In this document: piece after piece, positions 6,001 through 63,529 of the stretch
How positions within the stretch are numbered: the stretch's first letter is position 1
Layout: every line of letters starts with the position of its first letter
Source: Candidatus Freyarchaeum deiterrae
Lineage (GTDB): Archaea > Asgardarchaeota > Jordiarchaeia > Jordiarchaeales > Jordiarchaeaceae
Direction of reading: 5' to 3'
Assembly (NCBI GenBank): GCA_037305845.1
Contig: CP147778.1
Span: forward strand, 160,001-224,000
DNA: 64,000 nt
Position numbers and translations under genes: made by a program
Notes under the pieces: model-generated
Database searches by the model: none
Told to the model about the DNA's origin: nothing
What the model saw: the letters and a program-made list of their open reading frames with translations, nothing else

Positions 6001-9000
6001 AAGTAGAAGCCCAAAAGGTTGTTTGTGGCGGTGTTGCCCGAAAGAGTGTTGTTCAAGCTGGAGTGCAGGCTGAAACCGTAGGCGTTGCTGTTTGCAGTGT
6101 TGCCCGAAAGAGTATTGTACGAGCTATTTTCCAAGAAGAAGCCGCAGTAGGCGTTGCTGTTTGCAGTGTTGCCCGAAAGAGTATTGTACGAGCTATTTTC
6201 CAAGAAGAAGCCGCAGTAGGCGTTGCTGTTTGCAGTGTTGCCCGAAAGAGTATTGTACGAGCTATTTTCCAAGAAGAAGCCGCAGTAGGCGTTGCTGTTT
6301 GCAGTGTTGCCCGAAAGAGTATTGTACGAGCTATTTACTAGGTAGAAGCCGTAATAATTGTTTGTGGCGGTGTTGTTTAGGATTGTGTTGCCCTGTGAAT
6401 AGTAAAGGATTAGACCGTTATAGCCCTGTGTTATGGTGTTGTTCTCAATCCAAGTGTTGTCCGCCCTTATTACAAGCCCATTTTCGTCTATCGATGATGA
6501 ACCATATCCACAGTACTCCACTCGGCTGTTGTTCATCTGGAATGTCGCGTTTTCGTACACTATGAAATAGTAGGGGTTAGCCGGGTTTATGGCGGTTATT
6601 ATGGAGGAATCGTTGATGTACATTCCCCCGTAAACCTTGACGCCGTACTGGACCGGGGTGTAGCCGTCATTGACGTTTAGTTTGCATTTGATAAGGTGAA
6701 GCTCACCGGTTTCCGTGATGGTGAGGTCTCCGTCGAGGTTGATGTTGAGGTATTGTGAATAGTTGATTTCGGTTATTGTGGGGTTTGTCCAGGTGATGTT
6801 TGTGTATTGTTGTTGGATGGTTTCCACATGCGAAGTGGACATGTCAACTATTCTTGGATTATTCGAAAATTCGGCTACCGCCCAAGGAGACGAATACCAC
6901 ACCGTGACATGGGTAATGCTCTCAGTCATCTGGTTTATTCCTGTGAATGTCTTGTAAGGGACAGCAATCCAGGGGGTGAGACCGTTAGGGTCGGTGGTGT
7001 CGTTTAAACCCCCGAAAAATGATGTAGCGTACACCGTTGTTCCATCGGTCTCAACCATAATCTCTACGCCAGGGAAAGGAAGCCCCCGAACGTCTGTGAC
7101 TTCCACACGCAGGTAGTTCTCCCAAACACTACCAGTAAAATTATTACTAAAACTGTAGAAAGACCAATAGTATCCCGTGATAAAGTTTATGGCAATGTTA
7201 CCCGAAAGATTATTGTACGAGCTATAGGACAGGTTGAAGCCGGCCCAGCCGCAGCCGAATACGACGTTGTTCGCGGCGGTGTTATTAGAAAGAGTGTTAT
7301 ACGTGCTTCGGTAAAGATAGAAACCGATGCTGCTGTCTGTGGCAGTGTTACCGGAAAGAGTATTATACGAGCTAGAGCTAGGGCTATAGGGCGGGAAGAA
7401 ATAGTACGAGCTAGAGTACAGGTAGAAACCGTAATCAGTGTTGTTGGTTGCGGTGTTACCCGAGATAGTATTATACGAGCCATCCACCAGGTAGAAACCG
7501 GTGCCGCTGTTGTTTGCAGTGTTACCGGAAAGAGTATTATACGAGCTAGAGCTATAGAGCGGGTAGAAACCGTACGAGCTAGAGTACAGGTAGAAACCGT
7601 AATCAGTGTTGTTGGTTGCGGTGTTACCCGAGATAGTATTATACGAGCCATCCACCAGGTAGAAACCGATGCTGCTGTCTGTGGCAGTGTTATCAGAAAG
7701 ATTGTTATTCGAGCTGTCTTCAAGGTAAAAGCCGTAGTTATAGTTGTTGGTTGCGGTGTTACCAGAAAGAGTATTATACGAGCTATCCACCAGGTAGAAA
7801 CCGATGCTGCTGTCTGTGGCAGTGTTATCAGAAAGATTGTTATTCGAGCTGTCTTCAAGGTAAAAGCCGTAGTTATAGTTGTTGGTTGCGGTGTTACCAG
7901 AAAGAGTATTATACGAGCCATCCACCAGGTAGAAACCGTTGTAGCCGTTGTTGTTTGCGGCGTTACCAGAAAGATTGTTGTTCGAGCTGGAGTATAGGCC
8001 GAAGCCGTTGCAGTAGTTGTTTGCGGCGTTACCAGAAAGAGTATTATACGAGCTGTCTTCAAGGTAGAAGCCGTAGTAGAAGACGTAGTAGTAGCCGTAG
8101 TAGTAGCCGTTGTAGTTGTTGTTTGCTGTGTTACCCGAAAGAGTATTGTAAGAGCTGGAGTACAGGCCGAAGCCGTAGTAGTAGTTGTTTGCGGTGTTAC
8201 CAGAAAGAGTGTTATACGAGCTGTCTTCAAGGTAGAAGCCGTAGTAGTAGCCGCCGTAGTAAAGGTAGTAGTAGTTGTTGTTGTTTGCTGTGTTACCCGA
8301 AAGAGTATTGTTCGAGCTGAAGTATAGGCCGAAGCCGTAGTAGTAATTGTTTGCGGTGTTACCAGAAAGAGTGTTATACGAGCTGTCTTCAAGGTAGAAG
8401 CCGTAGTAGTCGCCGGAATAGTACCAGTTGTTGGTGTTGTTTGCGGTGTTACCCGAAAGAATATTGTACGAGCTATAGGACAGGTAGACACCGTAGTAGT
8501 TGTTGTCTACGGTGTTACCCGAAAGAATATTGTACGAGCTGGACTCAAGGTAGACACCGTAGTAGCCGTTGTTGTCTACGGTGTTACCTGAAAGAGTATT
8601 GTTCGAGCCATAGGACAGGTAGACACCGTATTCATTGTTGTTGTTTGCGGTGTTACCCGAAAGAATATTATTGTAAGAGCTATCTACTAGGCAGAAGCCG
8701 TAGCCGTTCTCGGTTGCAGTGTTACTTGAAAGAGTATTGTAAGAGCTAGAGTCTATGTAGACCCCGTAGTAGTTGTTGGTTGCGGTGTTAACCGAAAGAG
8801 TGTTATACGAGCTACTTTCTAGGCAGAAGCCGTACAAGTTGTTGTTTGTGGCGGTGTTATTAGAAAGATTGTTGTACGAGCTGTCTTTTAGGTAGAAGCC
8901 GTAATCGTTGTTGTTTGCGGCGTTACCAGAAAGAGTGTTGTTTGAGCTATCTACTAGGTAGAAACCAACGCCGTTTGTTGTAGCGGTGTTACCCGAAAGA

Positions 9001-11564
9001 AGATTGTTTAAACTATCTACTAGGTAGAAGCCGTCGTAGTAGTAGTAGTGGTAAAAGACGTTTACGGTGTTGCCTGAAAGAGTGTTGTTAGAGCCGTAGG
9101 ACAGGTAGAAACCGTAGTAGTTGTTGTTTAAGGTGTTGCCTGAAAGAGTGTTGTTAGAGCCGTAGGAAAGGTAGACGCCGGCACCATTATTGTTTGCGGT
9201 GTTACCCGAAAGAGTATTGTAAGAGCTGGAGTTTAGGTAGAAGCCTATACCCTCGCTAGTGGTTGCTAGGAAATAGGCTCGGAGATGATTGTATCTTCCA
9301 ACGTCTCCTTCTGCCATCAGTACATTATTAATGTATATTCTTGCATGCCAAGCGTAGTTCGGCACGTAACCAGAGCACGCATACTCGACGTAGTGACTCC
9401 CTAAGGAAACGTGTATTATAGTGGTGTAGGTAAATGAATAACCAGTTCCATCTTCGTCGAACATGTAGCCTAGATAATTCCAGAAGTCATTGGGAAGAGG
9501 TTGATCTAAAGACAAGCCATGTAACCTCCCGCAGGTGTCAGTGGTATTATGCGCCACAATGGTGATATTCACGGTAAAGTCGTAGATTTTTGCGATGACT
9601 GCGGTGTTGCCCGAGAGAGTGTTGTACGAGCAACTTTCCAAGTAGAAGCCTTCACGGCTATTATCTGTGGCGGTGTTACCAGAGAGAGTATTATACAAGC
9701 TATATACTAGGTAGAAGCCGGCACCATTATTGTTTGCTGTGTTAGCTGAAAGAGTATTGCTCAAGCTTCGGGACAGGTAGAAGCCGTAATCGTTGTTGTT
9801 TGCAGTGTTAGCTGAAAGAGTATTGCTCAAGCTACTTTCCAGGTAGAAGCCCCATCTGTTGTTTGTGGCAGTGTTACCCGAAAGAGTGTTGTTTGAGCTT
9901 TGGTAAAGGTAGAAGCCGTAATCGTTGTTGTCTGCGGCGGTATTACCAGAAAGAGTATTATATGAGCTTTTTTCTAAGAAGAAGCCCCAAAAATTATTGT
10001 CTGCTGTATTATTCGAAAAAGTGTTGTACAAGCTAGATGACAGACAAAAGCCGTAGTGGTTGTTGTTTGTGGCGGTGTTGCCCCAAAGATTATTATACGA
10101 GCTAATTTCCAAGAAGAAGCCGTAATCGTTGTTGTCTGCGCTGTTGCCCGAGAGAGTGTTATTTGAGCTTCGGGACAGGTAGAAGCCGTAATCGTTGTTG
10201 TCTGCGGCGGTATTACCAGAGAGAGTATTGTACGAACTATAGGACAGGGTGAAACCGTAGTACACGTTGTTTGTGACAGTGTTACCCGAAAGAGTATTGC
10301 TCAAGCTTCGGGACAGGTAGAAGCCGTAATCGTTGTTGTCTGCGGTGTTACCAGAGAGAGTATTATCGTTCGAGTTATATAGCAGGTAGAAGCCGTAGTA
10401 GTTGTTGGTTGCGGTGTTGCCCGAAATATTGTTGTTCGAGCTATCTACTAGTGAGAAGCCCTGGCCAGTGTTGTTTGTGGCGATGTTACCAGAAAGATTG
10501 TTGTACGAGCCGTTTTCCAGGTGGAAGCCGTCTTGCCCATTTTTGTTTGCGGTGTTACCAGAAAGAGTGTTGTACGAGCTATCTACTAGGTAGAAGCCCC
10601 ATCTGTTGTTTGTGGCAATGTTACCAGAAAGAGTATTGTACAAGCTAGAGTACAGGTAGAAACCTTCACCAGTATTGTTTGTAGCAATGTTATCCGAAAC
10701 AGTATTGTACAAGCTGTTTTCCAGTTGGAAGCCATCGTGGACGTTGTTGTTTGCGGTGTTACCAGAAAGAGTATTGTTTGAGCTATCTACTAGGTAGAAG
10801 CCCCATCTGTTGTTTGTGGCAGTGTTACCTGAGAGAGTATTGTTTGAGCTTTGGTAGAGGTAGAAGCCGAGGTTGTTGTTTGTGGCTGTGTTGTTTAGGA
10901 TTGTGCTGCCCTGTGAATTGTAGAGGATTAGACCGTTGTAGCCCTGTGTTATGGTGTTGTTCTCGATCCATGTGTTCTCCGTGTATACTGTGAGCCCTTG
11001 TTGGTCGGGCCAGGAGCCGCTGTTGTCTCCGCAGTACTTCACCCGGCTGTTGTTCATCTGGAAGGTTGCGTTTTCGTAGACTGTGAAGTAGTAGGGGTTA
11101 GCCGGGTTGATGGCGGTTATTGCGGAGGATTCGTTGATGTACAGTCCTCCGTAAACCTGGACGCCGTACTGGATGGGAATGATGCCGTTGTTCACGTTTA
11201 GTATACAGTGGATGAGGTGCAGCTCTCCGTTTTCCGTTATTTTGAGGTTTCCGTTGAGGGTTATGTTGAGGTCTTGTGAATAGTTGACGTCGCTTATTGT
11301 GGGGTTTGTCCAGGTTACGTTCGTGTAGGAATCAAATGGGTCATTTGGGTTGTTTGTGTCTTTGCTGGCTGGGTTGTTTTGGCTGTTTAGGGGATTTGGG
11401 ATGGCTGATTTGTTGTTTAGTGTGAAGATTAGTAGTTGTTGCTGTTGGTTTTGTGTTTGGTTTTGTGCTGTGATTATTGCAGCTATTGGGAGTATTATTA
11501 TTAGCAGTAGCGCGATAATCGTTATTATGATTTTTATGGGTGATTTCATTTTTTTATTTCCCAT
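1..11564 (-). CDS. Giant secreted/surface protein (>3850 aa, 3' end outside window): signal/TM segment, two right-handed parallel beta-helix (NosD/CASH-like) blocks, Ig-like domain, about 5 CARDB domains, about 5 C-terminal Ig-like (OmpL47-type) repeats
   Basis: Manual translation starts MGNKKMKSPIKIIITIIALLLIIILPIAAII; dozens of GFYLxxSSxNTLSGNTAxNN repeats; CARDB-type VDPxNxIxExNExNN motifs; DKTPPVTAISLxGxxGLNGW repeats. The frame at 11564 matches the frame at position 5, and the ORF track lists no terminated ORF in this frame. Alternative start 11549. Confidence 0.9.
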   Translation of the reverse strand, partial: MGNKKMKSPIKIIITIIALLLIIILPIAAIITAQNQTQNQQQQLLIFTLNNKSAIPNPLNSQNNPASKDTNNPNDPFDSYTNVTWTNPTISDVNYSQDLNITLNGNLKITENGELHLIHCILNVNNGIIPIQYGVQVYGGLYINESSAITAINPANPYYFTVYENATFQMNNSRVKYCGDNSGSWPDQQGLTVYTENTWIENNTITQGYNGLILYNSQGSTILNNTATNNNLGFYLYQSSNNTLSGNTATNNRWGFYLVDSSNNTLSGNTANNNVHDGFQLENSLYNTVSDNIATNNTGEGFYLYSSLYNTLSGNIATNNRWGFYLVDSSYNTLSGNTANKNGQDGFHLENGSYNNLSGNIATNNTGQGFSLVDSSNNNISGNTATNNYYGFYLLYNSNDNTLSGNTADNNDYGFYLSRSLSNTLSGNTVTNNVYYGFTLSYSSYNTLSGNTAADNNDYGFYLSRSSNNTLSGNSADNNDYGFFLEISSYNNLWGNTATNNNHYGFCLSSSLYNTFSNNTADNNFWGFFLEKSSYNTLSGNTAADNNDYGFYLYQSSNNTLSGNTATNNRWGFYLESSLSNTLSANTANNNDYGFYLSRSLSNTLSANTANNNGAGFYLVYSLYNTLSGNTATDNSREGFYLESCSYNTLSGNTAVIAKIYDFTVNITIVAHNTTDTCGRLHGLSLDQPLPNDFWNYLGYMFDEDGTGYSFTYTTIIHVSLGSHYVEYACSGYVPNYAWHARIYINNVLMAEGDVGRYNHLRAYFLATTSEGIGFYLNSSSYNTLSGNTANNNGAGVYLSYGSNNTLSGNTLNNNYYGFYLSYGSNNTLSGNTVNVFYHYYYYDGFYLVDSLNNLLSGNTATTNGVGFYLVDSSNNTLSGNAANNNDYGFYLKDSSYNNLSNNTATNNNLYGFCLESSSYNTLSVNTATNNYYGVYIDSSSYNTLSSNTATENGYGFCLVDSSYNNILSGNTANNNNEYGVYLSYGSNNTLSGNTVDNNGYYGVYLESSSYNILSGNTVDNNYYGVYLSYSSYNILSGNTANNTNNWYYSGDYYGFYLEDSSYNTLSGNTANNYYYGFGLYFSSNNTLSGNTANNNNYYYLYYGGYYYGFYLEDSSYNTLSGNTANNYYYGFGLYSSSYNTLSGNTANNNYNGYYYGYYYVFYYGFYLEDSSYNTLSGNAANNYCNGFGLYSSSNNNLSGNAANNNGYNGFYLVDGSYNTLSGNTATNNYNYGFYLEDSSNNNLSDNTATDSSIGFYLVDSSYNTLSGNTATNNYNYGFYLEDSSNNNLSDNTATDSSIGFYLVDGSYNTISGNTATNNTDYGFYLYSSSYGFYPLYSSSSYNTLSGNTANNSGTGFYLVDGSYNTISGNTATNNTDYGFYLYSSSYYFFPPYSPSSSSYNTLSGNTATDSSIGFYLYRSTYNTLSNNTAANNVVFGCGWAGFNLSYSSYNNLSGNIAINFITGYYWSFYSFSNNFTGSVWENYLRVEVTDVRGLPFPGVEIMVETDGTTVYATSFFGGLNDTTDPNGLTPWIAVPYKTFTGINQMTESITHVTVWYSSPWAVAEFSNNPRIVDMSTSHVETIQQQYTNITWTNPTITEINYSQYLNINLDGDLTITETGELHLIKCKLNVNDGYTPVQYGVKVYGGMYINDSSIITAINPANPYYFIVYENATFQMNNSRVEYCGYGSSSIDENGLVIRADNTWIENNTITQGYNGLILYYSQGNTILNNTATNNYYGFYLVNSSYNTLSGNTANSNAYCGFFLENSSYNTLSGNTANSNAYCGFFLENSSYNTLSGNTANSNAYCGFFLENSSYNTLSGNTANSNAYGFSLHSSLNNTLSGNTATNNLLGFYLHQSLNNTLSGNTANNSNGGFYLSQSSNNNLSRNIALNCTVGYYWSSDSGNNDFTGSFFGNYLLVNATDSLNYAISGVDVKVETNRTVWYATPHFGGSDPRTDLDGLTPQIVVPYSIFTGNDTMTDCTPVVTVWNSTAWFFNNPRTVNMSTPHMETFMADTLPPIVTITSPSNGAFINVTSVDITWTGSDNGVIDHYEVKLDAGSWINVGNTTTSYTLSLVVGYHTFYVTAFDMAHNYATESVSFAVGPDFAISPQNITLGKVGGTVYIYATVTNLGADYTGPITVIFFDIDENGNSTQIGSNQTIGGLLHGESKTVSVSWTFDQFHTVQVVVDPGNTIEEIDETNNVAQKNIYASRPAVQSVSSEFGVWKRSDYLGTFIVRVDVINKFTAVILDNEGPDLVVKVVFELNCITYDATRVSGGSWECALNMGSLTTSQNTLKITAYDQLGLISETKTITIHAIELPKWFKWPNQQIEWYPAEQKYVTVNIESIGYQFTYLDKTGEDASQALPGLGDTLKTLSFASEYSLNKTLIYYVNGVAKYRMEATYKGSIGGAEVSRFDRAEPTVDNDLNIQDYIMTTSVTASYTQREGVGFGFFIKLYFGSTEIDLGLGFRLGGDISIGVNYTTQKKYVGNSLDPIWTASYIGIMLRGTLYGELNALFVGARIEASVYTNIGIVLNQTKDETSPHLQSSYGDPLFGLRLQVSAWAFGIPFVPQTVVWEWRSPASLIPVEPSSATNYTSPRIASDNHGNAMMVWVQGRTDGNNTYPNICYSTWNGTGWGTSGYVSNDDYYNFDPALTYDSNGNVIAVWSRVPSNVTPQSDNLVDLFKNQEIVYSIWNGSAWSAPQQITNNTFADGSAAVTAGPDGKVVAVWVRDTDSNISTTNDTDLYYSVWDGTQWSPEAALTNNSFMDYSVSLAHDSKGRVIACWVRDLDGNLSTTSDTQLMYAMWDGTSWGPEGLVTTLNETKESPSVTFDRNDNALVTWVGGNESVYSLYCAYMDNTTGTWSEPEIVHEDPSFISKPTINVDQKNTAVIVWRGFVYNATENYFNGQICYATKNLSDPNAIWSGVKYLTNDNETNWMPSACITQPSNNLLVAWDKEGVVSNLTHPIKPDLALDSSDITFSNNYPSEGEIVNIMARVRNIGDVDAYNVRVDFYDGDPNSGGFLIGTQRINYLPYDGEVNVTCPWIAKPGTHNIYVVIDSLGSISEIDETNNVAYKSISTLPDLTVSPTDITFSKYNPSAGETITISATIHNQGGTSAENVLVQFYSNSVLIGSQTIPLLGSNDSTTVSTAWTAAAGQNNITVVIDPNNVIAEFNKENNVASTTMSILPDLEATGISLSGHELLPGENVTITTEIRNSGNADATGVLIEFFDGNPYINGTLIYSETTNLPMGGTHTSSFVWTPPQGIHQVFVVVNRENLIAESNETNNVQYDELVVKLVPDLTVLVPEIMMKPGYVKIIAPIQNIGEAGATGVVVALYDGDPATGGTMINGATILNIAAGETVNVSLTVYHPPVNEYLYIVVDPENTITESNETNNEATIKYIADLTPPTTTIDLSGTPGLNGWFVSPVTVNLTASDDLSGVDMTQYSFDNTTWNIYTGPFTITTEGVTTLYYNSTDNAGNVENTSTEVIMIDMTPPVTAISLSGTPGLNGWFTSNVDINLTANDNVSGIAMTEYSFDNTTWNTYTEPLTITAEGVTTVYYKSIDVAGNVETAKSETIKIDKTLPVTAISLSGVLGLNGWYISNVNVTLSPIDNTSGVNITEYSFDGTTWVTYTGPFTLTAEGSTTVYYNSTDNAGNMEATKTEIIKIDKTPPVTAISLNGTSGLNGWYTSNVNFYLSATDNVSGLNITEYSFDNTTWNTYKGPFTITAEGITTIYYRSTDNAGNVETTKSETIKIDKTPPTTVLIIGTHYTDGNGSIYVTSSTVFALTATDATPGSGVANTYYRINSGNWTLYVGAFNITGPIGTYTIDYYSVDNAGNKETPKTTTVIMEEAFQGC
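6078..6336. repeat. Perfect 69-bp tandem repeat, about 3.75 copies (one 23-aa beta-helix coil each)
   Basis: Unit GTAGGCGTTGCTGTTTGCAGTGTTGCCCGAAAGAGTATTGTACGAGCTATTTTCCAAGAAGAAGCCGCA starts at 6078, 6147, 6216 and 6285 (partial). Confidence 0.95.
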
Positions 11565-54318: not shown

Positions 54319-54897
54319 TTACCACATTTTTCCTTTGTAATGCTGCATTATGGGGCAACCGAGGCACTTTTTTTCTTTGTATCTCTTGCATTCGGTGCAA
54401 AGGTATTCGGATCCGCAGAGCGGTCTATCCATAATGTTTATTTTCATTTGGTAGGGAAGGTTTAGGTCCTTTGCGGCTGAAATTATAATGTTGAATTCGA
54501 CGTCTTTGACCTCTGGTAGTCGTCCTAGGTGGCATTCCACTACCGACTGGAGGGTTGATATATCCTCGCCTATGAGAAGCATGAAGACGCTATTTTTTCC
54601 TGATATTGTGAATCCGTTGAAGAAGTGTGGACAATTTTTGAAAATTTCCAATATTTTTTCGCTGTCTGTAGTGGAAACCTCGACTTTGGCAATATAGAGT
54701 CCCATTTTTAGGGGATTTACTCCGCAAATCCTCTGGAATACGCCCATCTCCTTCAGTTTTTTTAGCCTCATAGCTACTGAGGGTTGGGACAGCTTAATGA
54801 TCTCTGCTATTTGTTCCTGAGGAATATCTGGGTCTTCGCTCAGAAGCGATAATATCTCACGGTCTTTCTCATCCAGTTTAACTGCGGGCTCTGCCAT
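54319..54897 (-). CDS. Lrp/AsnC-family regulator with Cys-rich C-terminal extension
   Basis: LDEKDREILSLL..LSQPSVAMRLKKL HTH, RAM domain, C-x5-CxxC-x7-CxGCP tail. Confidence 0.92.
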   Translation of the reverse strand: MAEPAVKLDEKDREILSLLSEDPDIPQEQIAEIIKLSQPSVAMRLKKLKEMGVFQRICGVNPLKMGLYIAKVEVSTTDSEKILEIFKNCPHFFNGFTISGKNSVFMLLIGEDISTLQSVVECHLGRLPEVKDVEFNIIISAAKDLNLPYQMKINIMDRPLCGSEYLCTECKRYKEKKCLGCPIMQHYKGKMW

Positions 54898-54941: not shown

Positions 54942-55027
54942 ATTGCGCAATTTCCGTTAAATCAAATAATTTATAATGAATTTGGCTAAAATAATAATAA
55001 AATATATTAGTTATTTTTATTAAATAG
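54942..55027 (+). promoter_or_regulatory. Conserved promoter, copy 1 (divergent from lrp)
   Basis: Perfect palindrome ATTGCGCAAT 54942-54951; TTTATTAAATAG at 55016 (offset 74). Confidence 0.75.
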
Positions 55028-55044: not shown

Positions 55045-55400
55045 TACGAGAAGCATAGACAAAAACAAGTTTCAACTAACCACACAAAAACCAGGAGAAT
55101 CCACCTGGAAGGTTTAGAAAAACCGTCAAGAAAACTATTCCCCAAGAAAGTGCTATGGCTCCCGCTAAGCTTACTTGAGGGGTGGGCCCCGAATTGCTGG
55201 GGAGGAGGCCCCCCCTAAGTAAGCACAAACCTCGGATGGATGCGCTCAAACGAGAATGCAGTCGATGACTCACGAGTTTAGATGCGTGAATGAAAGAGCT
55301 TCGCAGGCTAGCAATAGTATTATGTTTATTGCTGACCACCCACCCTCTCTCCCTCGCACAGTCTGTGGAGCCCCATTAAACACGCACCCAAAACAGAGTG
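55045..55400 (+). ncRNA. BHB-containing structured ncRNA, copy 1 (predicted excised segment 55295-55379, 85 nt)
   Basis: GCGTG-AATG-AAA-14 bp helix...helix-CATT-AAA-CACGC (55284-55385); invariant 26-mer 55333-55358; upstream hairpin 55169-55224. Ends approximate. Confidence 0.75.
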
Positions 55401-55561
55401 ATTAAAAACGGACATGACAAGTTGTGCAGAAGTTTAACAAATGTTACTGAGAATAGAAACAAAGACCTGAACACAGAAAGAGACGAATCAACGCATGACC
55501 CTTTATGAAAAACATCATTAAAACTCAAGAAGTATAACTAAAAAGTTAAGGAGGCAAATGG

Positions 55562-55720
55562 ATGACAAATACTCTTACTATAAGAGAAAAAGCCACACTG
55601 GTAGTGGACTTCGATACCTGGAGAGACTTGAACCAGCTCAAAACCGAACTCGGTCTAAAAACCATTGACGATACCATAAAACATTTAATAAAAGAAAACG
55701 GTAACGGCGGCAAGAAGTAG
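55562..55720 (+). CDS. 52-aa ribbon-helix-helix-like protein (not in ORF track)
   Basis: MTNTLTIREKATLVVDFDTWRDLNQLKTELGLKTIDDTIKHLIKENGNGGKK; GGAGG SD at 55550. Confidence 0.7.
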   Translation: MTNTLTIREKATLVVDFDTWRDLNQLKTELGLKTIDDTIKHLIKENGNGGKK

Positions 55721-55841
55721 AAGCTTTCAAATGCAACGTACATCTATTCAATCTTTCTAGTAAAATGATGTATGCATAGTCAGTTCCTCTGTTTTGCACT
55801 ATCTTTTGATTGTAGAGGTGTAAAGGATTAGGTGAGAATGA

Positions 55842-55994
55842 ATGCCAGAAGTTTATTGTGAGATTAAGAAACGGAAGGTTGATGGGGGATTCTGCGCATA
55901 CATGTGTGAACTCCCAGAAACCGAAAAGAAGATCGCTTACAATCCCTTCAGAGGGATACAAACAGACTGCAGCTTCAGCAAGGAATCCTCATAA
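55842..55994 (+). CDS. 50-aa four-Cys small protein (not in ORF track)
   Basis: MPEVYCEIKKRKVDGGFCAYMCELPETEKKIAYNPFRGIQTDCSFSKESS; GGTGA SD at 55831. Confidence 0.55.
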   Translation: MPEVYCEIKKRKVDGGFCAYMCELPETEKKIAYNPFRGIQTDCSFSKESS

Positions 55995-56115
55995 ACAGAA
56001 GAAGTCAGTATAAATGCCAGATTAGGGCATAGTTCATTTTAGCGAGTCGTCTGCGGTTGAGGAGCATCCCGGCGCACTTTGCAGCCTTTTCTTAGCTATG
56101 CCGATCAATCTGCTA

Positions 56116-56481
56116 CTATTGTAAGTGTTCTTTGATTATACTTAGCAGGTTTTCAATTTTTATAGGTTTGAGTATGTAACCGTCTGCACCCTTGTTTACG
56201 GCTTCGATGGCGCTCCGCATTGTAGGATAGCCGGTAACCATAATTTTGACCATTTTGGGGCTGGCATCATTAATAGCAGCCAGAAGTTTTGTTCCTTCCA
56301 TGTCCGGAAGTCGAACGTCTATTAATGCTAGGTCGTAAGAATTGGTCTTGGTTTTTTCGATTGCTTCATTTCCATTTTCTGCCGTGTCGACGGTGTATCC
56401 TTCTTCTTCTAGTATTTTTGTTAGGATGCTTCTTATGCTTTCATCGTCATCGACAACAAGAATACTGGCAGGCCCACCCAT
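56116..56481 (-). CDS. Single-domain response regulator (receiver)
   Basis: ILVVDDD, LIDVRLPDMEG phospho-Asp, VTG, YILKP. Confidence 0.93.
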   Translation of the reverse strand: MGGPASILVVDDDESIRSILTKILEEEGYTVDTAENGNEAIEKTKTNSYDLALIDVRLPDMEGTKLLAAINDASPKMVKIMVTGYPTMRSAIEAVNKGADGYILKPIKIENLLSIIKEHLQ

Positions 56482-57004
56482 ACTACTCCCACCATTAATT
56501 TTTGTATTTGATTAGAAGATTTCCAAAGTCCCGCATTTTCCAATAGCGCCTTCCGCGTAGATCCATTCATAGTACATTTTTCGCAGTATCGAATAATAAT
56601 ATTTTATAAACCTTGCAAGAATCTACGCTGCACCGTTTTCTACTTTTTCTGAAAAGTCAAATTCTCCTATACGTATATAATCAATGGTTTTTCTTCAGAA
56701 ACTTTTATGGCTCCCAGATTTAATATTATTATTAATCAGTCTAATCATCTTTTTAAGGCGGAAAGCTTCATTTAACTGCCACACTTCTCCTATAAAAAAC
56801 TATTCAAAAAGTATAATAAAAAAGATATTTTATTCACGCTTTATAGATTTAAATGAGCGCTAATAGTTGAGAAATAAATTAGTAGACGATTATAATTGCA
56901 AAAATACAGGCTTCAAATGGAATTTAATTCGAATCTTGAACAGGTCCACAAACCATATCCAAAAGTTGAGGCTAAATTCCGGGGACAATACAGAGGAGCT
57001 AAAT

Positions 57005-59158
57005 ATGGGAAAATTGGTAGAGAAAACGGAACCCGTTAAAATGCGAAAATCAGGGATCGAAGTTCTGGGCGACATCCCTTGGGGAACACACCTCTGTCAA
57101 TTCTACGAAACCAAGGAAGACCTGCTCGATATTCTAGTGCCCTACTTCGCTGAGGGCCTAAGAGACAATGAATATTGTATATGGGTTACTGCCCCACCCT
57201 TGGACACCGAGGAAGCAAGGGCATCGCTTCAGGAAGCGGTTACCGAATTGGAAAATTATGTGGAGAAGGGGCAGATTGAGATTCTTCCATACACGGATTG
57301 GTATCTTCTCAATGGAGAGTTTGACGAGAACAGGGTTCTTAATGGATGGGTGGAGAAAGAGAAAAGTGCCCTCGAGAGGGGTTTTGAGGGAATACGTCTT
57401 ACGGGGAACTTTATTTGGAGTGAAAAGAAATTTTGGAAAAAGTTCGTAGCATATGACGCAAAAATTAGTGAAATAATTGGAAGGCACCGAATGATTGCTA
57501 TCTGCGCTTACTCTCTTGAGAAATGCACCGGAAACGATATTGCTGATGTTATAAGAAACCATGGGAACGCACTGATTAGAAAGGGAAAATCATGGTTCTT
57601 AGTTGAAGACAGTTCGAAACATAGATTGGAAGATAATAAAGTCGTTGGCAGCCTGACAAAGTTAATGAGAAGCGAAGAGAAATATCGGCAACTAATAGAA
57701 AATTTGAATGAAGGGATTTGGCTCATCGATAAGGAATCCAGGACTACCTTCTGCAATGAGCGTATTTCGGAGATTTTGGGATACACGGTGGACGAGATGA
57801 TTGGTAGGAATTTATTTTCGTTCATGGATGAACACGGTGTGGAGATTGCCAAAAAACTGTTAGAACGCCGCAGAGAGGGAGTAAGAGAGGATCATGATTT
57901 CGAATTTATTCGTAAAGATGGGGCAAGGATTTACACGCGTTTAGGTACGTCACCAATCATAGACGAAAATGGAAATTATGCTGGTGCGCTTGCTGCGGTC
58001 ATAGACATCACAGAACGCAGGCGTATGGAAGAAGAACTGGAGAATTCGGAAAAGCGTTATAAGGAACTGTTCAACAACACTGGTGACGCCATCTTCATCC
58101 ATGACTTGGAAGGTAAATTTCTAGAGGTTAACCGTGTAGCCTGTGAACGCCTCGGCTACAGCCGGGAAGAATTCCTACGGATGAGCCCAATGGACATAGA
58201 CACTCCAGAATATGCAGCCATAGTACCTGAACGGATGGAGGAGCTACGCCAGAAAGGTCAAATCATATTCGAAACGGCTCACTTGAGACGCGACGGCTGC
58301 GACTGCATCCGCATACCCACCGAACTGAGCAGTTGCCTCATTGAGTATGATGGAAAGCCAGCTATCCTCAGCATCGCCAGAGACATCACCGAGCGTAAGA
58401 GAATGGAGGAGGAGCTCAGACGTTACTCCGAGCACCTTGAGGAATTGGTCGAAGAGAGAACAAGAAAGCTGAGAGAAGCCGAGCGGATGGCCGCTATTGG
58501 TGAGACTGCGGCCATGGTGGGCCATGACCTCCGCAACCCGCTGCAGAGCATTTTCGGCTTACTTTATTTAGCTAATAAAAACTTGAATTCTCAAGCCACT
58601 TCAAATGGGAAACAGAAAAATGACTTGGCTGAGTTGTTGCAAACAATCGAGGGACAGGTGGACTACATGAACAAAATTGTTTCTGATCTAGAGGATTACG
58701 CGAAGCCAGTGAATCCCCAACTGGTTGCGACGAGCGTACACCAGCTAATCGATGACACATTCTCAGCGAGAACAATTCCTGAAAATGTTAGAGTCTACAT
58801 GGGAATTGAGGAGGACTTACAACTGGCGATTGACCCCACTATGATGCGGCGTGTATTAGCCAACTTGATTGAAAACGCAGTTCAAGCCATGCCAAACGGA
58901 GGCCAGCTGAAGATAAAAGCTTCCAAAAAGGGGGACTCTGTACTTATAGGTGTAGAGGACACAGGTGTGGGCATACCGGGAGAGAATCTGTCCAAACTTT
59001 TCCAGCCGCTATTCACCACCAAGGCTAAGGGGCAGGGGCTCGGATTAGCCGTCTGCAATAGGCTGGTGGAAGCCCATGGTGGCAGCATTACGGTGGAGAG
59101 TGAGGTGGGTAAAGGCTCAACCTTCACAGTCGAAATACCGCTTAAAAAGATGAATTAA
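57005..59158 (+). CDS. MEDS-PAS-PAS-HisKA-HATPase soluble histidine kinase
   Basis: GTHLCQFYET (MEDS), two PAS/PAC, GHDLRNPL, ENAVQAM, DTGVGI, FTTK..GQGLGL; start ATG 57005 after GAGGAG. Confidence 0.93.
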   Translation: MGKLVEKTEPVKMRKSGIEVLGDIPWGTHLCQFYETKEDLLDILVPYFAEGLRDNEYCIWVTAPPLDTEEARASLQEAVTELENYVEKGQIEILPYTDWYLLNGEFDENRVLNGWVEKEKSALERGFEGIRLTGNFIWSEKKFWKKFVAYDAKISEIIGRHRMIAICAYSLEKCTGNDIADVIRNHGNALIRKGKSWFLVEDSSKHRLEDNKVVGSLTKLMRSEEKYRQLIENLNEGIWLIDKESRTTFCNERISEILGYTVDEMIGRNLFSFMDEHGVEIAKKLLERRREGVREDHDFEFIRKDGARIYTRLGTSPIIDENGNYAGALAAVIDITERRRMEEELENSEKRYKELFNNTGDAIFIHDLEGKFLEVNRVACERLGYSREEFLRMSPMDIDTPEYAAIVPERMEELRQKGQIIFETAHLRRDGCDCIRIPTELSSCLIEYDGKPAILSIARDITERKRMEEELRRYSEHLEELVEERTRKLREAERMAAIGETAAMVGHDLRNPLQSIFGLLYLANKNLNSQATSNGKQKNDLAELLQTIEGQVDYMNKIVSDLEDYAKPVNPQLVATSVHQLIDDTFSARTIPENVRVYMGIEEDLQLAIDPTMMRRVLANLIENAVQAMPNGGQLKIKASKKGDSVLIGVEDTGVGIPGENLSKLFQPLFTTKAKGQGLGLAVCNRLVEAHGGSITVESEVGKGSTFTVEIPLKKMN

Positions 59159-59304
59159 GCTGAACAAGAAAAGTTATAGATTTTAAAAAATCTCTCTAAA
59201 ACTGGAGCTAAAAAAATAACTTAAATCTCAAAAACAAGCATCAACAAATTTTTAAATTAGAGTGCCTCGAGGAGTAGCAGCCTAAGCTAATAGTCCGGTA
59301 ATTT

Positions 59305-59366
59305 GCTATTGGAAATTTATGGCTCTTCGTATAGAAGAGTTGATGTTTCATGCACTTTTGTGCAGT
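59305..59366 (-). pseudogene. Decayed remnant of the lrp 5' end
   Basis: Reads HETSTLLYEEP* versus REILSLLSEDPD in the intact gene, at the equivalent position relative to the promoter. Confidence 0.5.
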
Positions 59367-59418
59367 ACAAGAATCTGTTTTGCTATTTTTCATGAGGTTT
59401 CTGTTGAATTATAAGAAT

Positions 59419-59504
59419 ATTGTGTAATTTCAATTAAATTAAATAATTTATAACAAAATTTTCAATAATAATAATAAATTATCATAGTTAGTTTTATTAA
59501 ATAG
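59419..59504 (+). promoter_or_regulatory. Conserved promoter, copy 2
   Basis: ATTGTGTAAT at 59419; TTTATTAAATAG at 59493 (offset 74). Confidence 0.7.
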
Positions 59505-59521
59505 TTTTGCTCTAATTAAAA

Positions 59522-59873
59522 TACAAGGAGCTTTAAAAAAATCTCAGAACCGTCCACTTGGGAGGCATACAAGGACCAGCAGGGAATTCCCCCGAGAAAA
59601 CGCTGGCTCCAGCTCTGCTTGCGGGAAGGGGGATTTAAAACTGCTTGGGGCGGAGGACTCCTAAATGTTGGGAGGAGGCCCCCCACCTTAAGCCCGCGTC
59701 CTCCAGAATGGGCGACTTCAGTGATCCAGTAATACAGAACTAAAAGTTTAAAGCGTGAATGAAAGAGTTTCACAGACCCCAAATAATATTAAGATAATGG
59801 ATAGATGACCACCCACCCTCTCTCCCTCGCACGGTCTGTGAAGCTCCATTAAACACGCACCCAAAACAGAGTG
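59522..59873 (+). ncRNA. BHB-containing structured ncRNA, copy 2 (predicted excised segment 59764-59852, 89 nt)
   Basis: BHB 59753-59858 with inner helix GAGTTTCACAGACC/GGTCTGTGAAGCTC; invariant 26-mer 59806-59831; upstream hairpin 59643-59693. Ends approximate. Confidence 0.75.
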
Positions 59874-60035
59874 CCTAAAAAGACTAAAATGACGAATTCC
59901 ATAGCGCATCAGAGAGAGCACAAGCGGTATGAATAAAAACAACTAACCAAAAAACGAATTGAAGTATGACTTTTACGAAAAAAATCATTAAAGCTTTTGA
60001 AAAGTTGATTAAAAAAAAATTAGTGATGAACATAA

Positions 60036-60188
60036 ATGCTCAAAAGGAATAATAGAATAGAAAAAACTACACTGGTAGTGGACCTTAATGATTTAATCTT
60101 GAAAGAACACAGTGCTCTGAAGCAGATCCTGAAAGAAATCACAAAGGATTACTATTCAATACAGCGAAAGAACACAATCTCTCAGTAA
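60036..60188 (+). CDS. 50-aa ORF partly homologous to the RHH-like protein (possibly degenerate)
   Basis: MLKRNNRIEKTTLVVDLNDLILKEHSALKQ...; shares EK(A/T)TLVVD and the upstream ATGAC..TTTA.GAAAAA.ATCATTAAA motif with 55562..55720. Confidence 0.4.
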   Translation: MLKRNNRIEKTTLVVDLNDLILKEHSALKQILKEITKDYYSIQRKNTISQ

Positions 60189-60271
60189 ACGTTGAAAGCA
60201 CGGCTGTAAAAAAGGAGTAATTCTTACAAAACATTCAATTAGACTAAAAAGTCTGGAAGCAAGAAGACGCG

Positions 60272-60352
60272 CCTGTAAAGATTATTGTCGACCACTATGA
60301 AAGTGTAAGGAAAGATTTAACAAACATGAGCGAAAGGAGAATACGTTTTTGA
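60272..60352 (+). pseudogene. Possible receiver-domain remnant
   Basis: PVKIIVDHYESVRKDLTNM resembles PASILVVDDDESIRSILTKI; stops early and has no start. Confidence 0.35.
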
Positions 60353-60815
60353 AGAAAAAACGATCGAGCCCGAGCCCCAAACGCTTTAATAGTTTTAGCG
60401 TCTCTGCCCTCTGATTTTAAACTATTTCATTTCATTAAGTGTTTTATAGCTTGGTCAATGGTTTTAGACTGGGTTCGGTTTTTAGCTTGCTCAAAGCTCT
60501 CCAAGTATAAATTCTGAATACGACCAATCGGAATTTATTACTTCGAAGGATGCCTATAATTTTTATAATATTTCCAATTAATTTTTATCAAATACGCAAC
60601 CCTTTTAAATGAAGACTTCTTGCAGTTTTATTAAATAAGAACTATTTAGAATATTATGATAAAATAGTTAGTGTTAATTAAGCGGTAAGAGTTAGAAATA
60701 GGGTATATAAAAAATTTTTAAAAAACCTCACTGGTATGAGAAGCTAACATTAAACCAGTTGGCATCATATTTAGAGTTAAGAGAAGTCTGAGGGAAGAAA
60801 GGAAGAGGTTAAGGT

Positions 60816-62594
60816 ATGGTAAAATTGGTGGAGGAGATAGAAAATTCTGCCTTGCGAAAATCTGGAATTGAAGTTCTGGGCGACATCCCTTGGGGAACAC
60901 ACCTCTGTCAATTCTACGAAACTAAAGAAGATATGAAAGATATTCTGGTGCCCTACTTCGCTGAGGGCTTAAGAAACAATGAGATGTGTATGTGGGTGAC
61001 CTCAATACCTTTGGGAGTCGAAGAAGCAACAGCGGCGCTTCGGAAAGCGGTTCCTAACTTGGAATATTACGTGGAGAAGGGGCAGATTGAGATTCTTCCG
61101 TACACGGAATGGTACCTTCTCGGCGGAGAGTTTGATATGGACAGAGTTCTGAATGGATGGATTGAGAAGGAAAAAAGCGCTATTGAGCGCGGGTTTGATG
61201 GGTTGCGTCTTACTGGAAACACTTTCTGGCTTCAGCGGAGCCTCTGGCAAAGCTTCGTGGACTATGAAGCAAAAATAAACGAGGTGATCGGGGAGCACCG
61301 AATGGTCGCCATTTGTACTTACTCGCTTAAAAAATGCACCACCAGCGATGTTATCGACGTCATGAGAAACCATGAGAGCACATTGATTAGAAAGGGAAAA
61401 TCCTGGTTCCTAGCTGAAGATGTCACAAAGCGTAAAATGGCGGAGAATAGGGCTACAGAGAGCCGGACACAGTTGAAGAGAAGCGAAGAGAAATACCGCT
61501 TACTAATAGAAAATTTGAATGAAGGGGTTTGGGTTTACGATAATAAAATCTTGACCTCTTTTGTCAATGAGCGCATGGCTGAGATGTTGGGATACACCGT
61601 GGATGAAATGATTGGTAAACATATATTTTCATTCATGAATGAAAAGGGAGTGGAGATTGCCAAAAAAAAGTTAGAAAGCCGGAAACGGGGAATCGCCGAA
61701 GTTCATGAATTCGAATTTGTCCGAAAAAATGGGACTAGAATTTACACGCAAATAGGTGAATCGCCTATCATAGGCGAAGATGGAAATTTTGCTGGAGCAA
61801 TTGCTGCCGTCACAGATATCTCAGAACACAGGCGAATGGAGGACGAGCTTAGAAATTATTCCGAGCGCCTAGAGGAGTTGGTTGAAGAGAGGACAAGAAA
61901 GCTGAGAGAAGCCGAGCGGATGGCTACAGTAGGTGAGCTGGCTGCTACAGTGGGCCATGATCTCCGCAACCCGCTGCAGAGCATTTTCGGCTTACTTTAT
62001 TTAGCTAATAAAAATTTGAATCCTCAAGCCACTTCAAATGGGAAACAGAAAAATGACTTGGGCGAGTTGTTGCAAACAATAGAGGGACAGGTTGACTACA
62101 TGAGAAAAATTGTTTCTGACCTTGAGGATTACGCGAAGCCAGTGAAGCCTCAACTGGTTGAGACCAGCTTACACCAGCTAATCGATGAAACATTCTCAGC
62201 GATAACAATTCCAGAGAAGGTTCAGGTTTCTATCGGAATTCAAGAGGACTTTCCACAGCTGATGGTTGACCAAGCAATGATGCGACGTGTATTGGACAAC
62301 CTAGTTACAAACGCAGTTCAAGCCATGCCAAACGGAGGTCGACTGACGATAAAAGCATCCGAAACAGATGACAATGCGCTCATAATCGTAGAGGACACGG
62401 GTGTAGGCATACCTGAAGAGAATCTCCCAAAGATTTTCCAGCCACTGTTTACCACAAAGCCTAAAGGTCAAGGGTTCGGATTGCCGGCCTGCAAGAGGCT
62501 GGTGGAAGCCCACGGTGGCAGCATCACGGTGGAGAGTGAGGTGGGTAAAGGCTCAACCTTCACAGTCAAAATACCACTCAGAAATATGAAGTAG
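60816..62594 (+). CDS. MEDS-PAS-HisKA-HATPase soluble histidine kinase
   Basis: Close paralog of 57005..59158 with one PAS domain; GHDLRNPL and N/G1/F/G2 boxes. Confidence 0.94.
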   Translation: MVKLVEEIENSALRKSGIEVLGDIPWGTHLCQFYETKEDMKDILVPYFAEGLRNNEMCMWVTSIPLGVEEATAALRKAVPNLEYYVEKGQIEILPYTEWYLLGGEFDMDRVLNGWIEKEKSAIERGFDGLRLTGNTFWLQRSLWQSFVDYEAKINEVIGEHRMVAICTYSLKKCTTSDVIDVMRNHESTLIRKGKSWFLAEDVTKRKMAENRATESRTQLKRSEEKYRLLIENLNEGVWVYDNKILTSFVNERMAEMLGYTVDEMIGKHIFSFMNEKGVEIAKKKLESRKRGIAEVHEFEFVRKNGTRIYTQIGESPIIGEDGNFAGAIAAVTDISEHRRMEDELRNYSERLEELVEERTRKLREAERMATVGELAATVGHDLRNPLQSIFGLLYLANKNLNPQATSNGKQKNDLGELLQTIEGQVDYMRKIVSDLEDYAKPVKPQLVETSLHQLIDETFSAITIPEKVQVSIGIQEDFPQLMVDQAMMRRVLDNLVTNAVQAMPNGGRLTIKASETDDNALIIVEDTGVGIPEENLPKIFQPLFTTKPKGQGFGLPACKRLVEAHGGSITVESEVGKGSTFTVKIPLRNMK

Positions 62595-62831
62595 AGTGAA
62601 CAAGGAAAGTATCCAGATTATGGATAATGAAATTCAAGTCTAAAAAGCACCAACAAATATTAAAAAATAAAAGTATTCAAACTGAGGATTTGATTTTTGG
62701 GTTCCGCGTTAATTAATAATATCAACTTTAAATTTTCAGCCAGTAAGGTCATAATCCTGCCCCTCTTGCCTAAGGAGAAGCTTGATCCTTTTTTTTTATT
62801 AGTTATGGGTTTCCTCTGAATTACAAAGAAT

Positions 62832-62917
62832 ATTGCGCAATTCTAGTTAAATCGAATAATTTATAGTGAAATTTATTACACAAATTATGAATTATAATAG
62901 GCAAATTTATTAAATAG
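62832..62917 (+). promoter_or_regulatory. Conserved promoter, copy 3
   Basis: ATTGCGCAAT 62832-62841; TTTATTAAATAG at 62906 (offset 74). Confidence 0.75.
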
Positions 62918-62934
62918 TTACTAGAGATATATAC

Positions 62935-63260
62935 AAAGAAGAAAACACTTAGCCCAACTACAAATACAACAGAGTTACACTAATCCTGGCGGTATGGAAT
63001 GGCGGAGGAAATTACAGGGCTCCCAAAAGTGCTTCAACGGAGGATCCCTCAAATGCTGGGAGGAGGAGGGGTCCTCCCGGAAAGCACACGCTTCAACTGA
63101 AGACTGCACTGGAATTGGTAATTCGGAGTTTAACGGGTTGGTTTAACGCGTGAATGAAAGAGTTTCACAGACCCCAAATAAAATTATGATAATGATGACC
63201 ACCCACCCTCTCTCCCTCGCAGGTCTGTGGAGCTCCATTAAACACGCACCCAGAACAGAT
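62935..63260 (+). ncRNA. BHB-containing structured ncRNA, copy 3 (predicted excised segment 63159-63241, 83 nt)
   Basis: BHB 63148-63247; invariant 26-mer 63196-63221; upstream hairpin 63029-63087. Ends approximate. Confidence 0.75.
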
Positions 63261-63295: not shown

Positions 63296-63529
63296 ATGGT
63301 TGAAGTTGTTAAGACATTTGGTGAGTTAAAATATCTGGCTGAGAATTGGATAAAGGTGTATGATTTAAAGTGTCCTGTGTGTGGCTCACCGGTCTTCGTT
63401 AGACCATTCAATGTGTTCTCGGTAGCGGCAGAGAGTGGTCTTATTGAGATTGAAATGGAGCAGATATGCCAGAATTCAGAATGTGGTTATAGTGCAATCA
63501 GATTTTATGATATTCAAATTCACGAATAA
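63296..63529 (+). CDS. Small zinc-ribbon protein
   Basis: CPVCG ... CQNSECGY; GGAGTGA SD; starts about 50 nt after BHB copy 3. Confidence 0.75.
   Translation: MVEVVKTFGELKYLAENWIKVYDLKCPVCGSPVFVRPFNVFSVAAESGLIEIEMEQICQNSECGYSAIRFYDIQIHE

Follow-up and report, generated by a model that had tools for sequence, protein, structure and literature searches.

The window analyzed here, 64,000 nt in length, covers positions 160001–224000 of the closed 3,576,204-bp genome (label G000; other loci are labeled with L or G numbers) of Candidatus Freyarchaeum deiterrae. This Asgard archaeon has a complete 3.58-Mb genome and intron-rich tRNAs (PMC11291895). On its plus strand, the window contains three copies of a structured leader of approximately 350 nt, each of which includes a bulge-helix-bulge (BHB) hairpin enclosing a predicted intron. 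The BHB hairpins occupy positions 55284–55385, 59753–59858, and 63148–63247, and the predicted introns (55295–55379, 59764–59852, and 63159–63241) are 85, 89, and 83 nt long, assuming a cut after the second base of the bulge. The 3′ half of each intron loop is formed by the same 26-mer (55333–55358, 59806–59831, and 63196–63221), which consists of a 9-nt core followed by a C/U tract. The elements of the leader are arranged in the order of a promoter block, a hairpin with a motif resembling the Shine-Dalgarno (SD) sequence, the BHB hairpin, and a small gene. As judged from sequence and predicted structure, these leaders represent a real, undescribed RNA family of the BHB leader-intron kind, restricted to one genus and its close relatives.

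The family was analyzed as a set of 12 homologs, comprising the three window copies and nine further full sequences gathered via synteny with the divergent Lrp gene, pattern scans, and covariance models. The nine additional homologs originate from five congeneric genomes (one per genome; among them are Jordarchaeia QZM_A3 and RPF2, Freyarchaeota SQRJ_82, and Ca. Jordarchaeum madagascariense), a 342-kb metagenome contig (two homologs), and two other assemblies; all 12 RNAs belong to the Freyarchaeum/Jordarchaeum genus or near relatives. A pattern ignoring the loop sequence matched only the five congeneric genomes among 185,579 GTDB genomes, and the matches of relaxed patterns were confined to the genus, apart from three unrelated chance matches, with no viral match. 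A covariance model with strict filters detected no family member in 145 other Asgard genomes searched, exact patterns of the 26-mer core had no match in GTDB or viral contigs, and the strict BHB pattern had none in metagenomes. The leader-intron family is absent from Rfam (no family at gathering score, and only chance miRNA and snoRNA matches by E-value) and from the literature searched, which yielded no paper describing the Freyarchaeum BHB leader RNA. Five Logan contigs, the run types of which are unspecified, contain the genomic (unspliced) form only.

A canonical BHB is defined by a 4-bp helix and two 3-nt bulges (PMC6379350). In the hairpins described here, the closing strands read GCGTG-AATG-AAA (5′ side) and CATT-AAA-CACGC (3′ side); the hairpin geometry is canonical on the plus strand only, and on this strand the hairpins fold with z-scores of -3.3 to -6.3. 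A 4-bp central helix flanked by 3-nt bulges on opposite strands, each located 3′ of its helix strand, was found in all 12 homologs, the central helix being fully paired in eight of them and carrying a single mismatch in four related genomes. Intron length varies only between 81 and 89 nt across the set, and both geometry and length are thus kept in every homolog while the 26-mer itself is not. Standard pairs fill 92% of the pair cells of the 12-row alignment, and both the outer and the central helix show double-sided changes. The outer helix is 93% paired, with a double-sided change in six rows, and the inner helix is 95% paired, with 5 of its 12 pairs never varying, although the sequences are related and the independent events are few. 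The three window hairpins rank among 17 strong BHB candidates in the whole genome, which encodes two EndA subunits (PF01974 genes) and one RtcB. In geometry, in covarying flanking helices, and in the presence of endonuclease and ligase genes, the element corresponds to the structural definition of an archaeal BHB intron and is a predicted substrate; it is fairly likely that EndA cuts both bulges and that RtcB joins the exons and circularizes the intron. A second near-perfect canonical BHB, with an intron of about 43 nt, lies approximately 2.4 kb beyond the window end (G000:C1:226366-226425, plus strand). It has all-Watson-Crick outer and central helices with ACT and ATT bulges, is located directly downstream of an Hsp20-like gene and a terminator, and is unrelated in sequence to the leader family.

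An earlier note on this DNA, made from the letters alone, had described the 26-mer as identical in three copies, invariant, exposed, and loosely similar to the 3′ tail of 16S rRNA. The three identical copies were confirmed at all their positions, and the 3.58-Mb genome contains exactly these three, even with up to six substitutions tolerated. The loop is 100% identical among the window paralogs; since their neighboring segments are only about 45–75% alike, this identity is not due to chance. The claim of invariance held for a much shorter sequence. None of the nine non-window homologs has the exact 26-mer, which is altered by a 1-nt deletion, substitutions, a 2-nt insertion, or replacement of its 3′ half; in five of the nine the changes are minor and confined to the pyrimidine tract, and in 4 of the 12 homologs the C/U tail is replaced. 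The sole loop part constant across the family is TG[A/G]CCACCC (UGRCCACCC in RNA). Exposure is predicted for the window copies, where the mean unpaired probability of the 26-mer is 0.69–0.92, whereas in most orthologs the first 6 nt of the core pair with an upstream UGGUUA into a small helix that is degenerate in the window. This helix changes from UGGUUA to UGGCUC, opposite UGGCCA, in four related genomes, a UA-to-CG double change that is probably a single event. The C-rich seed is predicted to be single-stranded, with unpaired probabilities of 0.65–0.92 in eight homologs and 0.44–0.63 in four. The 26-mer resembles the 16S tail only loosely, as CCUCC, the complement of the dominant SD core, is absent from all 12 introns.

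The upstream hairpin of the leader carries the most invariant partner of the intron loop. It contains a strong SD-like loop, UGGGAGGAGG, approximately 125–150 nt upstream of the intron loop and without a start codon. The motif UGGG(G)AGGAGG, in and next to the apical loop, is invariant in 13 of 13 sequences, its stem covaries, and no start codon follows it in 11 of 12 homologs. Its pairing with the 16S tail (-11.4 to -12.0 kcal/mol) falls within the best 5–10% of SD windows of the genome. In copy 1, the hairpin spans 55169–55224, with the motif at 55198–55208; in copy 3, it spans 63029–63087, with the motif at 63057–63066; in copy 2, the hairpin is rearranged, and the motif (59669–59678) is predicted to be mostly paired.

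Putative promoter blocks precede the three leaders at 54942–55027, 59419–59504, and 62832–62917, all on the plus strand. In all copies a ATTGCGCAAT-type palindrome is located about 74 bp ahead of a TATA-like box; in the first block, the operator-like palindrome lies at 54942–54951 and the TATA-like box at 55016–55027. Copy 1 is divergent from a gene for an Lrp/AsnC-family regulator (54319–54897, minus strand), an arrangement seen in every copy-1 ortholog examined. The combination of operator and TATA-like box was observed at nine loci (53685, 54942, 59419, and 62832 in the window; 527194, 611214, 614354, 952087, and 3422567 in G000), which constitute a probable regulon of the adjacent Lrp; several of these blocks precede small open reading frames (ORFs) that are longin- or roadblock-like by eye.

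The gene after the leader differs between copies. Copy 1 is followed by a gene for a 52-aa ribbon-helix-helix (RHH)-like protein (55562–55720, plus strand; weak PF17414 match, E 0.003), the position of which is kept in orthologs, copy 2 by a degenerate RHH-like ORF (60036–60188, plus strand), and copy 3 by a 77-aa Cys4 zinc-ribbon-like ORF (63296–63529, plus strand) that starts 48 nt past the BHB hairpin; at L025 the following gene encodes a MEDS kinase. Because the following gene differs by copy and, in the three window copies, the interval from the BHB to the next start codon contains no run of five T residues, this layout would fit a portable leader better than a terminated small RNA (sRNA). 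A coding role of the leader RNA was rejected, as the precursor, the spliced form, and the circle contain no conserved ORF. Downstream of the RHH-like gene, a 50-aa Cys-containing ORF (55842–55994, plus strand) is conserved in L038 and L044 and has no Pfam or NCBIfam match. Elsewhere in the window, long arrays of 66/69-nt and 264-nt repeats (5900–11400 and 292–1383) probably encode repeat proteins.

Known RNA classes were considered and rejected. No tRNA was found; the spliced 7-nt loop lacks U33, and a T arm is missing. A box C/D guide, which would combine boxes C and D with a 10–21-nt antisense element 5′ of D or D′, is contradicted by a C-like box in 1 and CUGA in 4 of the 12 introns and by negative Rfam results; a match of the inner helix to 23S rRNA has no D box, and each intron has several such matches. 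One of them, an 11–13-bp complement (with G-U pairs) of the 5′ arm of the intron helix (55297–55307) to 23S rRNA near 1839003, beside the peptidyl-transferase loop, was observed in all five homologs tested; it is probably due to chance, because guide boxes are absent and matches of such length are common. For a box H/ACA guide, the 3′ AAAACAG varies (AAAACUG in G002) and lies more than 30 nt from the loop, compared with 14–16 nt between the ACA box and a bipartite pocket in this class, which also has a K-turn or K-loop; no tandem G-A pairs were seen in the alignment. A selenocysteine insertion sequence was rejected by eye, as the 3′ strand has no GA, and an "empty pre-rRNA" mimic shares the 16S-stem geometry without sequence likeness beyond the AAA bulge. 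Nothing was found in a literature search on binding of CU-rich RNA by archaeal NusA, and this lead was not used. The 5S rRNA, signal recognition particle (SRP) RNA, and RNase P RNA have separate genes (G000, approximately 1426540–1426690, 1689630–1689990, and 1698618–1699006, respectively), the first being dissimilar to the element. This 5S rRNA gene (minus strand), missed by Rfam, appears circularly permuted, as in L066, L068, L071, and L072 of the same class. In the region G000:C1:1804901-1839900, the 16S gene has two insertions, one of about 80 nt near the 5′ end and one in the helix-45 loop (32 nt). The 3′ end of this gene and the processing-stem strand recur at 1833383, 1834687, and 1836139, and approximately 30 kb separates 16S from 23S, which suggests islands integrated at the 16S 3′ end.

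We tentatively favor, at somewhat less than even probability, the explanation that the intron loop is a cis mask of the orphan SD-like loop, which would be lifted by EndA/RtcB splicing so that the leader switches state. In the unspliced RNA, the SD-like loop might be masked by cis pairing with the C-rich loop, which lies about 130 nt further downstream. Cleavage of both bulges by EndA, followed by exon joining and intron circularization by RtcB, would take the mask away. The freed motif could recruit a 30S subunit or a protein, or RNA stability might change, and the small regulator or kinase gene downstream would then be expressed differently; the released ring would be a by-product or a secondary sponge of low specificity. 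The predicted loop-loop pairing is favorable after opening costs in all 12 homologs (-2.6 to -14.3 kcal/mol, pseudoknot penalties not included). In eight homologs it combines GGGAG:CUCCC with UGC:GCA (-4.8 to -14.3 kcal/mol), and in the divergent clade of four it takes the form UGGGAGG:CCACCCA (-2.6 to -5.5 kcal/mol), using exactly the two invariant motifs.

Several observations weigh against the cis mask. Among the 12 homologs, the two loops show no two-sided compensatory change, and the duplex, the energies of which carry no pseudoknot penalty, hardly outperforms shuffled loops (p of 0.04–0.33 in eight homologs and 0.6–0.9 in four). In four homologs, only 6 bp of it remain and an A-A mismatch is present; these homologs are also mismatched in the 4-bp central helix. 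Finally, in the window copies 240–370 nt separate the SD-like motif from the next start codon, which would make any effect on the downstream gene indirect at best.

A less probable, though possible, alternative is that the excised ring itself is the product, serving as a protein-binding scaffold or decoy whose site combines the 12-bp conserved helix, the UGGYU/RCCA helix, and the C-rich strand, with the flanks acting merely as a processing stem. Such a ring would account for an inner helix conserved in sequence and not in pairing alone, as the five unvarying pairs indicate, for the tight intron length, and for the several, apparently homogenized copies per genome; moreover, the A of the core sits where pairing with an SD or with the upstream loop gains nothing. 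The invariant SD-like loop would be left unexplained, however, no candidate protein was identified, and the C/D and H/ACA boxes of known guide RNAs are missing.

It is rather improbable that the BHB serves simply for processing or decay, or is rarely cut, with only the 9-nt core under selection and the loop identity caused mainly by gene conversion of tandem paralogs. The trees of the 5′ domain and of the hairpin nonetheless disagree. Copy 3 groups with L025 by the 5′ domain (99/98) and with copy 2 by the hairpin (96/95), and each data set rejects the grouping of the other (approximately unbiased test, p of 0.0006 and 0.0004; the groups are post hoc and the alignments short). The 5′ domain also groups copy 1 with L026. 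The introns of L025 and L026, both on contig Ga0315314_1000009, are 95% identical, while their 5′ domains are 63% identical. Since within-genome hairpins are more alike than the 5′ domains predict (L025/L026 and copies 2/3), these comparisons suggest that paralog hairpins have been homogenized within genomes, by gene conversion or intron-module exchange, which inflates loop identity. The joint loss of the RNA and the downstream RHH gene from the copy-1 locus of a relative, L041, also speaks for this reading. However, the orthologs G002, L043, and L038 are single-copy, which makes conversion impossible, and they still match the loop at 85–93% with flanks at about 50–70%; selection thus still acts on the loop.

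The earlier note had proposed that the 26-mer is an anti-SD-like guide or decoy, acting either in trans as a circular repressor or sponge or in cis by blocking the downstream SD. The premises of this proposal hold in part: the SD-like sites that it named are present in the window, and the loop offers a C-rich surface that is conserved and largely single-stranded, within a BHB intron of an SD-using organism equipped with EndA and RtcB. With starts assigned by a simple heuristic, 80 of 520 upstream windows contain GGAGG, compared with 7 of 520 coding controls, and the 26-mer binds upstream windows approximately 3.4 kcal/mol better than coding controls. Shuffled loops reproduce about 80% of this preference. 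Against 100 shuffles, the 26-mer shows z = -1.5 (p 0.06; z = -2.1 in a smaller first run), whereas the true 16S tail reaches z = -2.3 to -2.5; the invariant core yields z = -0.3, the four divergent-clade loops z = +0.4 to +1.1, and the window-clade loops a slight excess over shuffles (z of -0.5 to -2.1). The preference of the loop for SD regions is mostly base composition.

No particular target stands out either. The best ribosome-binding site (RBS) among 2163 ORFs, at -30.3 kcal/mol, equals the shuffled-loop expectation of -30.3 kcal/mol, the longest perfect complement of the 26-mer elsewhere in the genome is 13 nt (none of at least 14 nt), and GGGUGG, the perfect target of the invariant core, is present in only 5 of 520 SD windows. 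The RBS of the neighboring response regulator is a top 1% partner in the source genome, but cognate pairs reach ranks of only 6–24% in five other genomes, and its strongest match occurs in the genome that has lost the RNA at the locus. The SD of the downstream RHH gene is an average partner (cognate ranks of 0.33–0.68 among 520 RBSs), and a cis block of this site is accordingly not supported. Comparison of the RBSs of four neighboring genes (response regulator, RHH, Hsp20, and Lrp), the only ones comparable between genomes, revealed no consistent target, and all four were rejected as conserved targets. A sequence-specific anti-SD guide is thus not supported, given that the loop is not invariant, its preference is mostly compositional, and its best target is at the shuffle level; the anti-SD label should be dropped or heavily discounted. 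A trans-acting repressor or sponge comparable to RoxS, FsrA, or sRNA162, perhaps silenced by its own G-rich loop as long as it is part of the precursor, would draw on the C-rich, mostly unpaired loop of the window copies, the slight window-clade excess, and the short and generic nature of C-rich seeds in bacteria (PMC8464778); in view of the missing CCUCC, the shuffle-level scores, and the lack of conserved targets, we consider it rather improbable, although the loop may act as a promiscuous sponge of low specificity or bind a protein. The loop is more likely a mask within its own RNA than a blocker of the ribosome-binding sites of other genes. Similarly improbable is a combined scheme, in which the SD mimic and the anti-SD-like loop mask each other in one transcript until cleavage by the endonuclease leaves two active products, a linear RNA that binds 30S and a stable C-rich ring.

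A close analogy to the proposed spliced leader is HVO_1309 of Haloferax volcanii, where splicing of a single-copy 46-nt BHB intron in the 5′ untranslated region was demonstrated (Schwarz et al. 2020, PMC7714728). In both cases, the intron interrupts a non-coding leader and not a tRNA, an rRNA, or a coding sequence, and would give a small circle as an EndA substrate, splicing being predicted here and shown there. In contrast to HVO_1309, the Freyarchaeum introns are 81–89 nt long, occur in up to three copies before different genes, and carry a conserved internal motif together with an upstream SD-like hairpin; homology is not claimed. The C-rich sRNAs RoxS and FsrA of Bacillus subtilis with their G-rich sponge RosA (PMC8464778) and the archaeal sRNA162 (PMC3510493) likewise illustrate a single-stranded C-rich segment that can pair with G-rich RBSs and a G-rich counterpart that could neutralize it. 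Unlike in these systems, the C-rich and G-rich parts reside here in one transcript, flanking a splice site, and of the features of the anti-SD sRNA class only the predicted single-stranded C-rich seed is present; SD-core complementarity beyond composition, CCUCC included, and specific or conserved mRNA targets are lacking. Excision and circularization of a BHB-bounded segment would also be expected by comparison with the C/D guide in the tRNA-Trp intron, pre-rRNA stems, the circular SRP RNA of Thermoproteus (PMC4731332), and the permuted Asgard 5S rRNA, from which the leader differs in having no C/D boxes, no tRNA exons, and no likeness to its own 16S stem beyond the AAA bulge. With yeast HAC1, only the logic of an intron-leader pairing relieved by splicing is shared. 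The HAC1 intron, part of a coding mRNA and a target of Ire1, is removed by an endonuclease and tRNA ligase and stays paired to the 5′ leader of its own RNA up to splicing.

Apart from tRNA and rRNA, few substrates of EndA have been described, such as the cbf5 mRNA and the HVO_1309 leader (PMC7714728). The predicted splice junctions of the family described here are exact and can be checked in existing wetland-soil metatranscriptomes. A leader intron that is conserved and multi-copy in Asgard archaea and associated with a locus of a regulator and a sensor kinase would be a candidate case of regulated tRNA-type splicing among prokaryotes closely related to eukaryotes.

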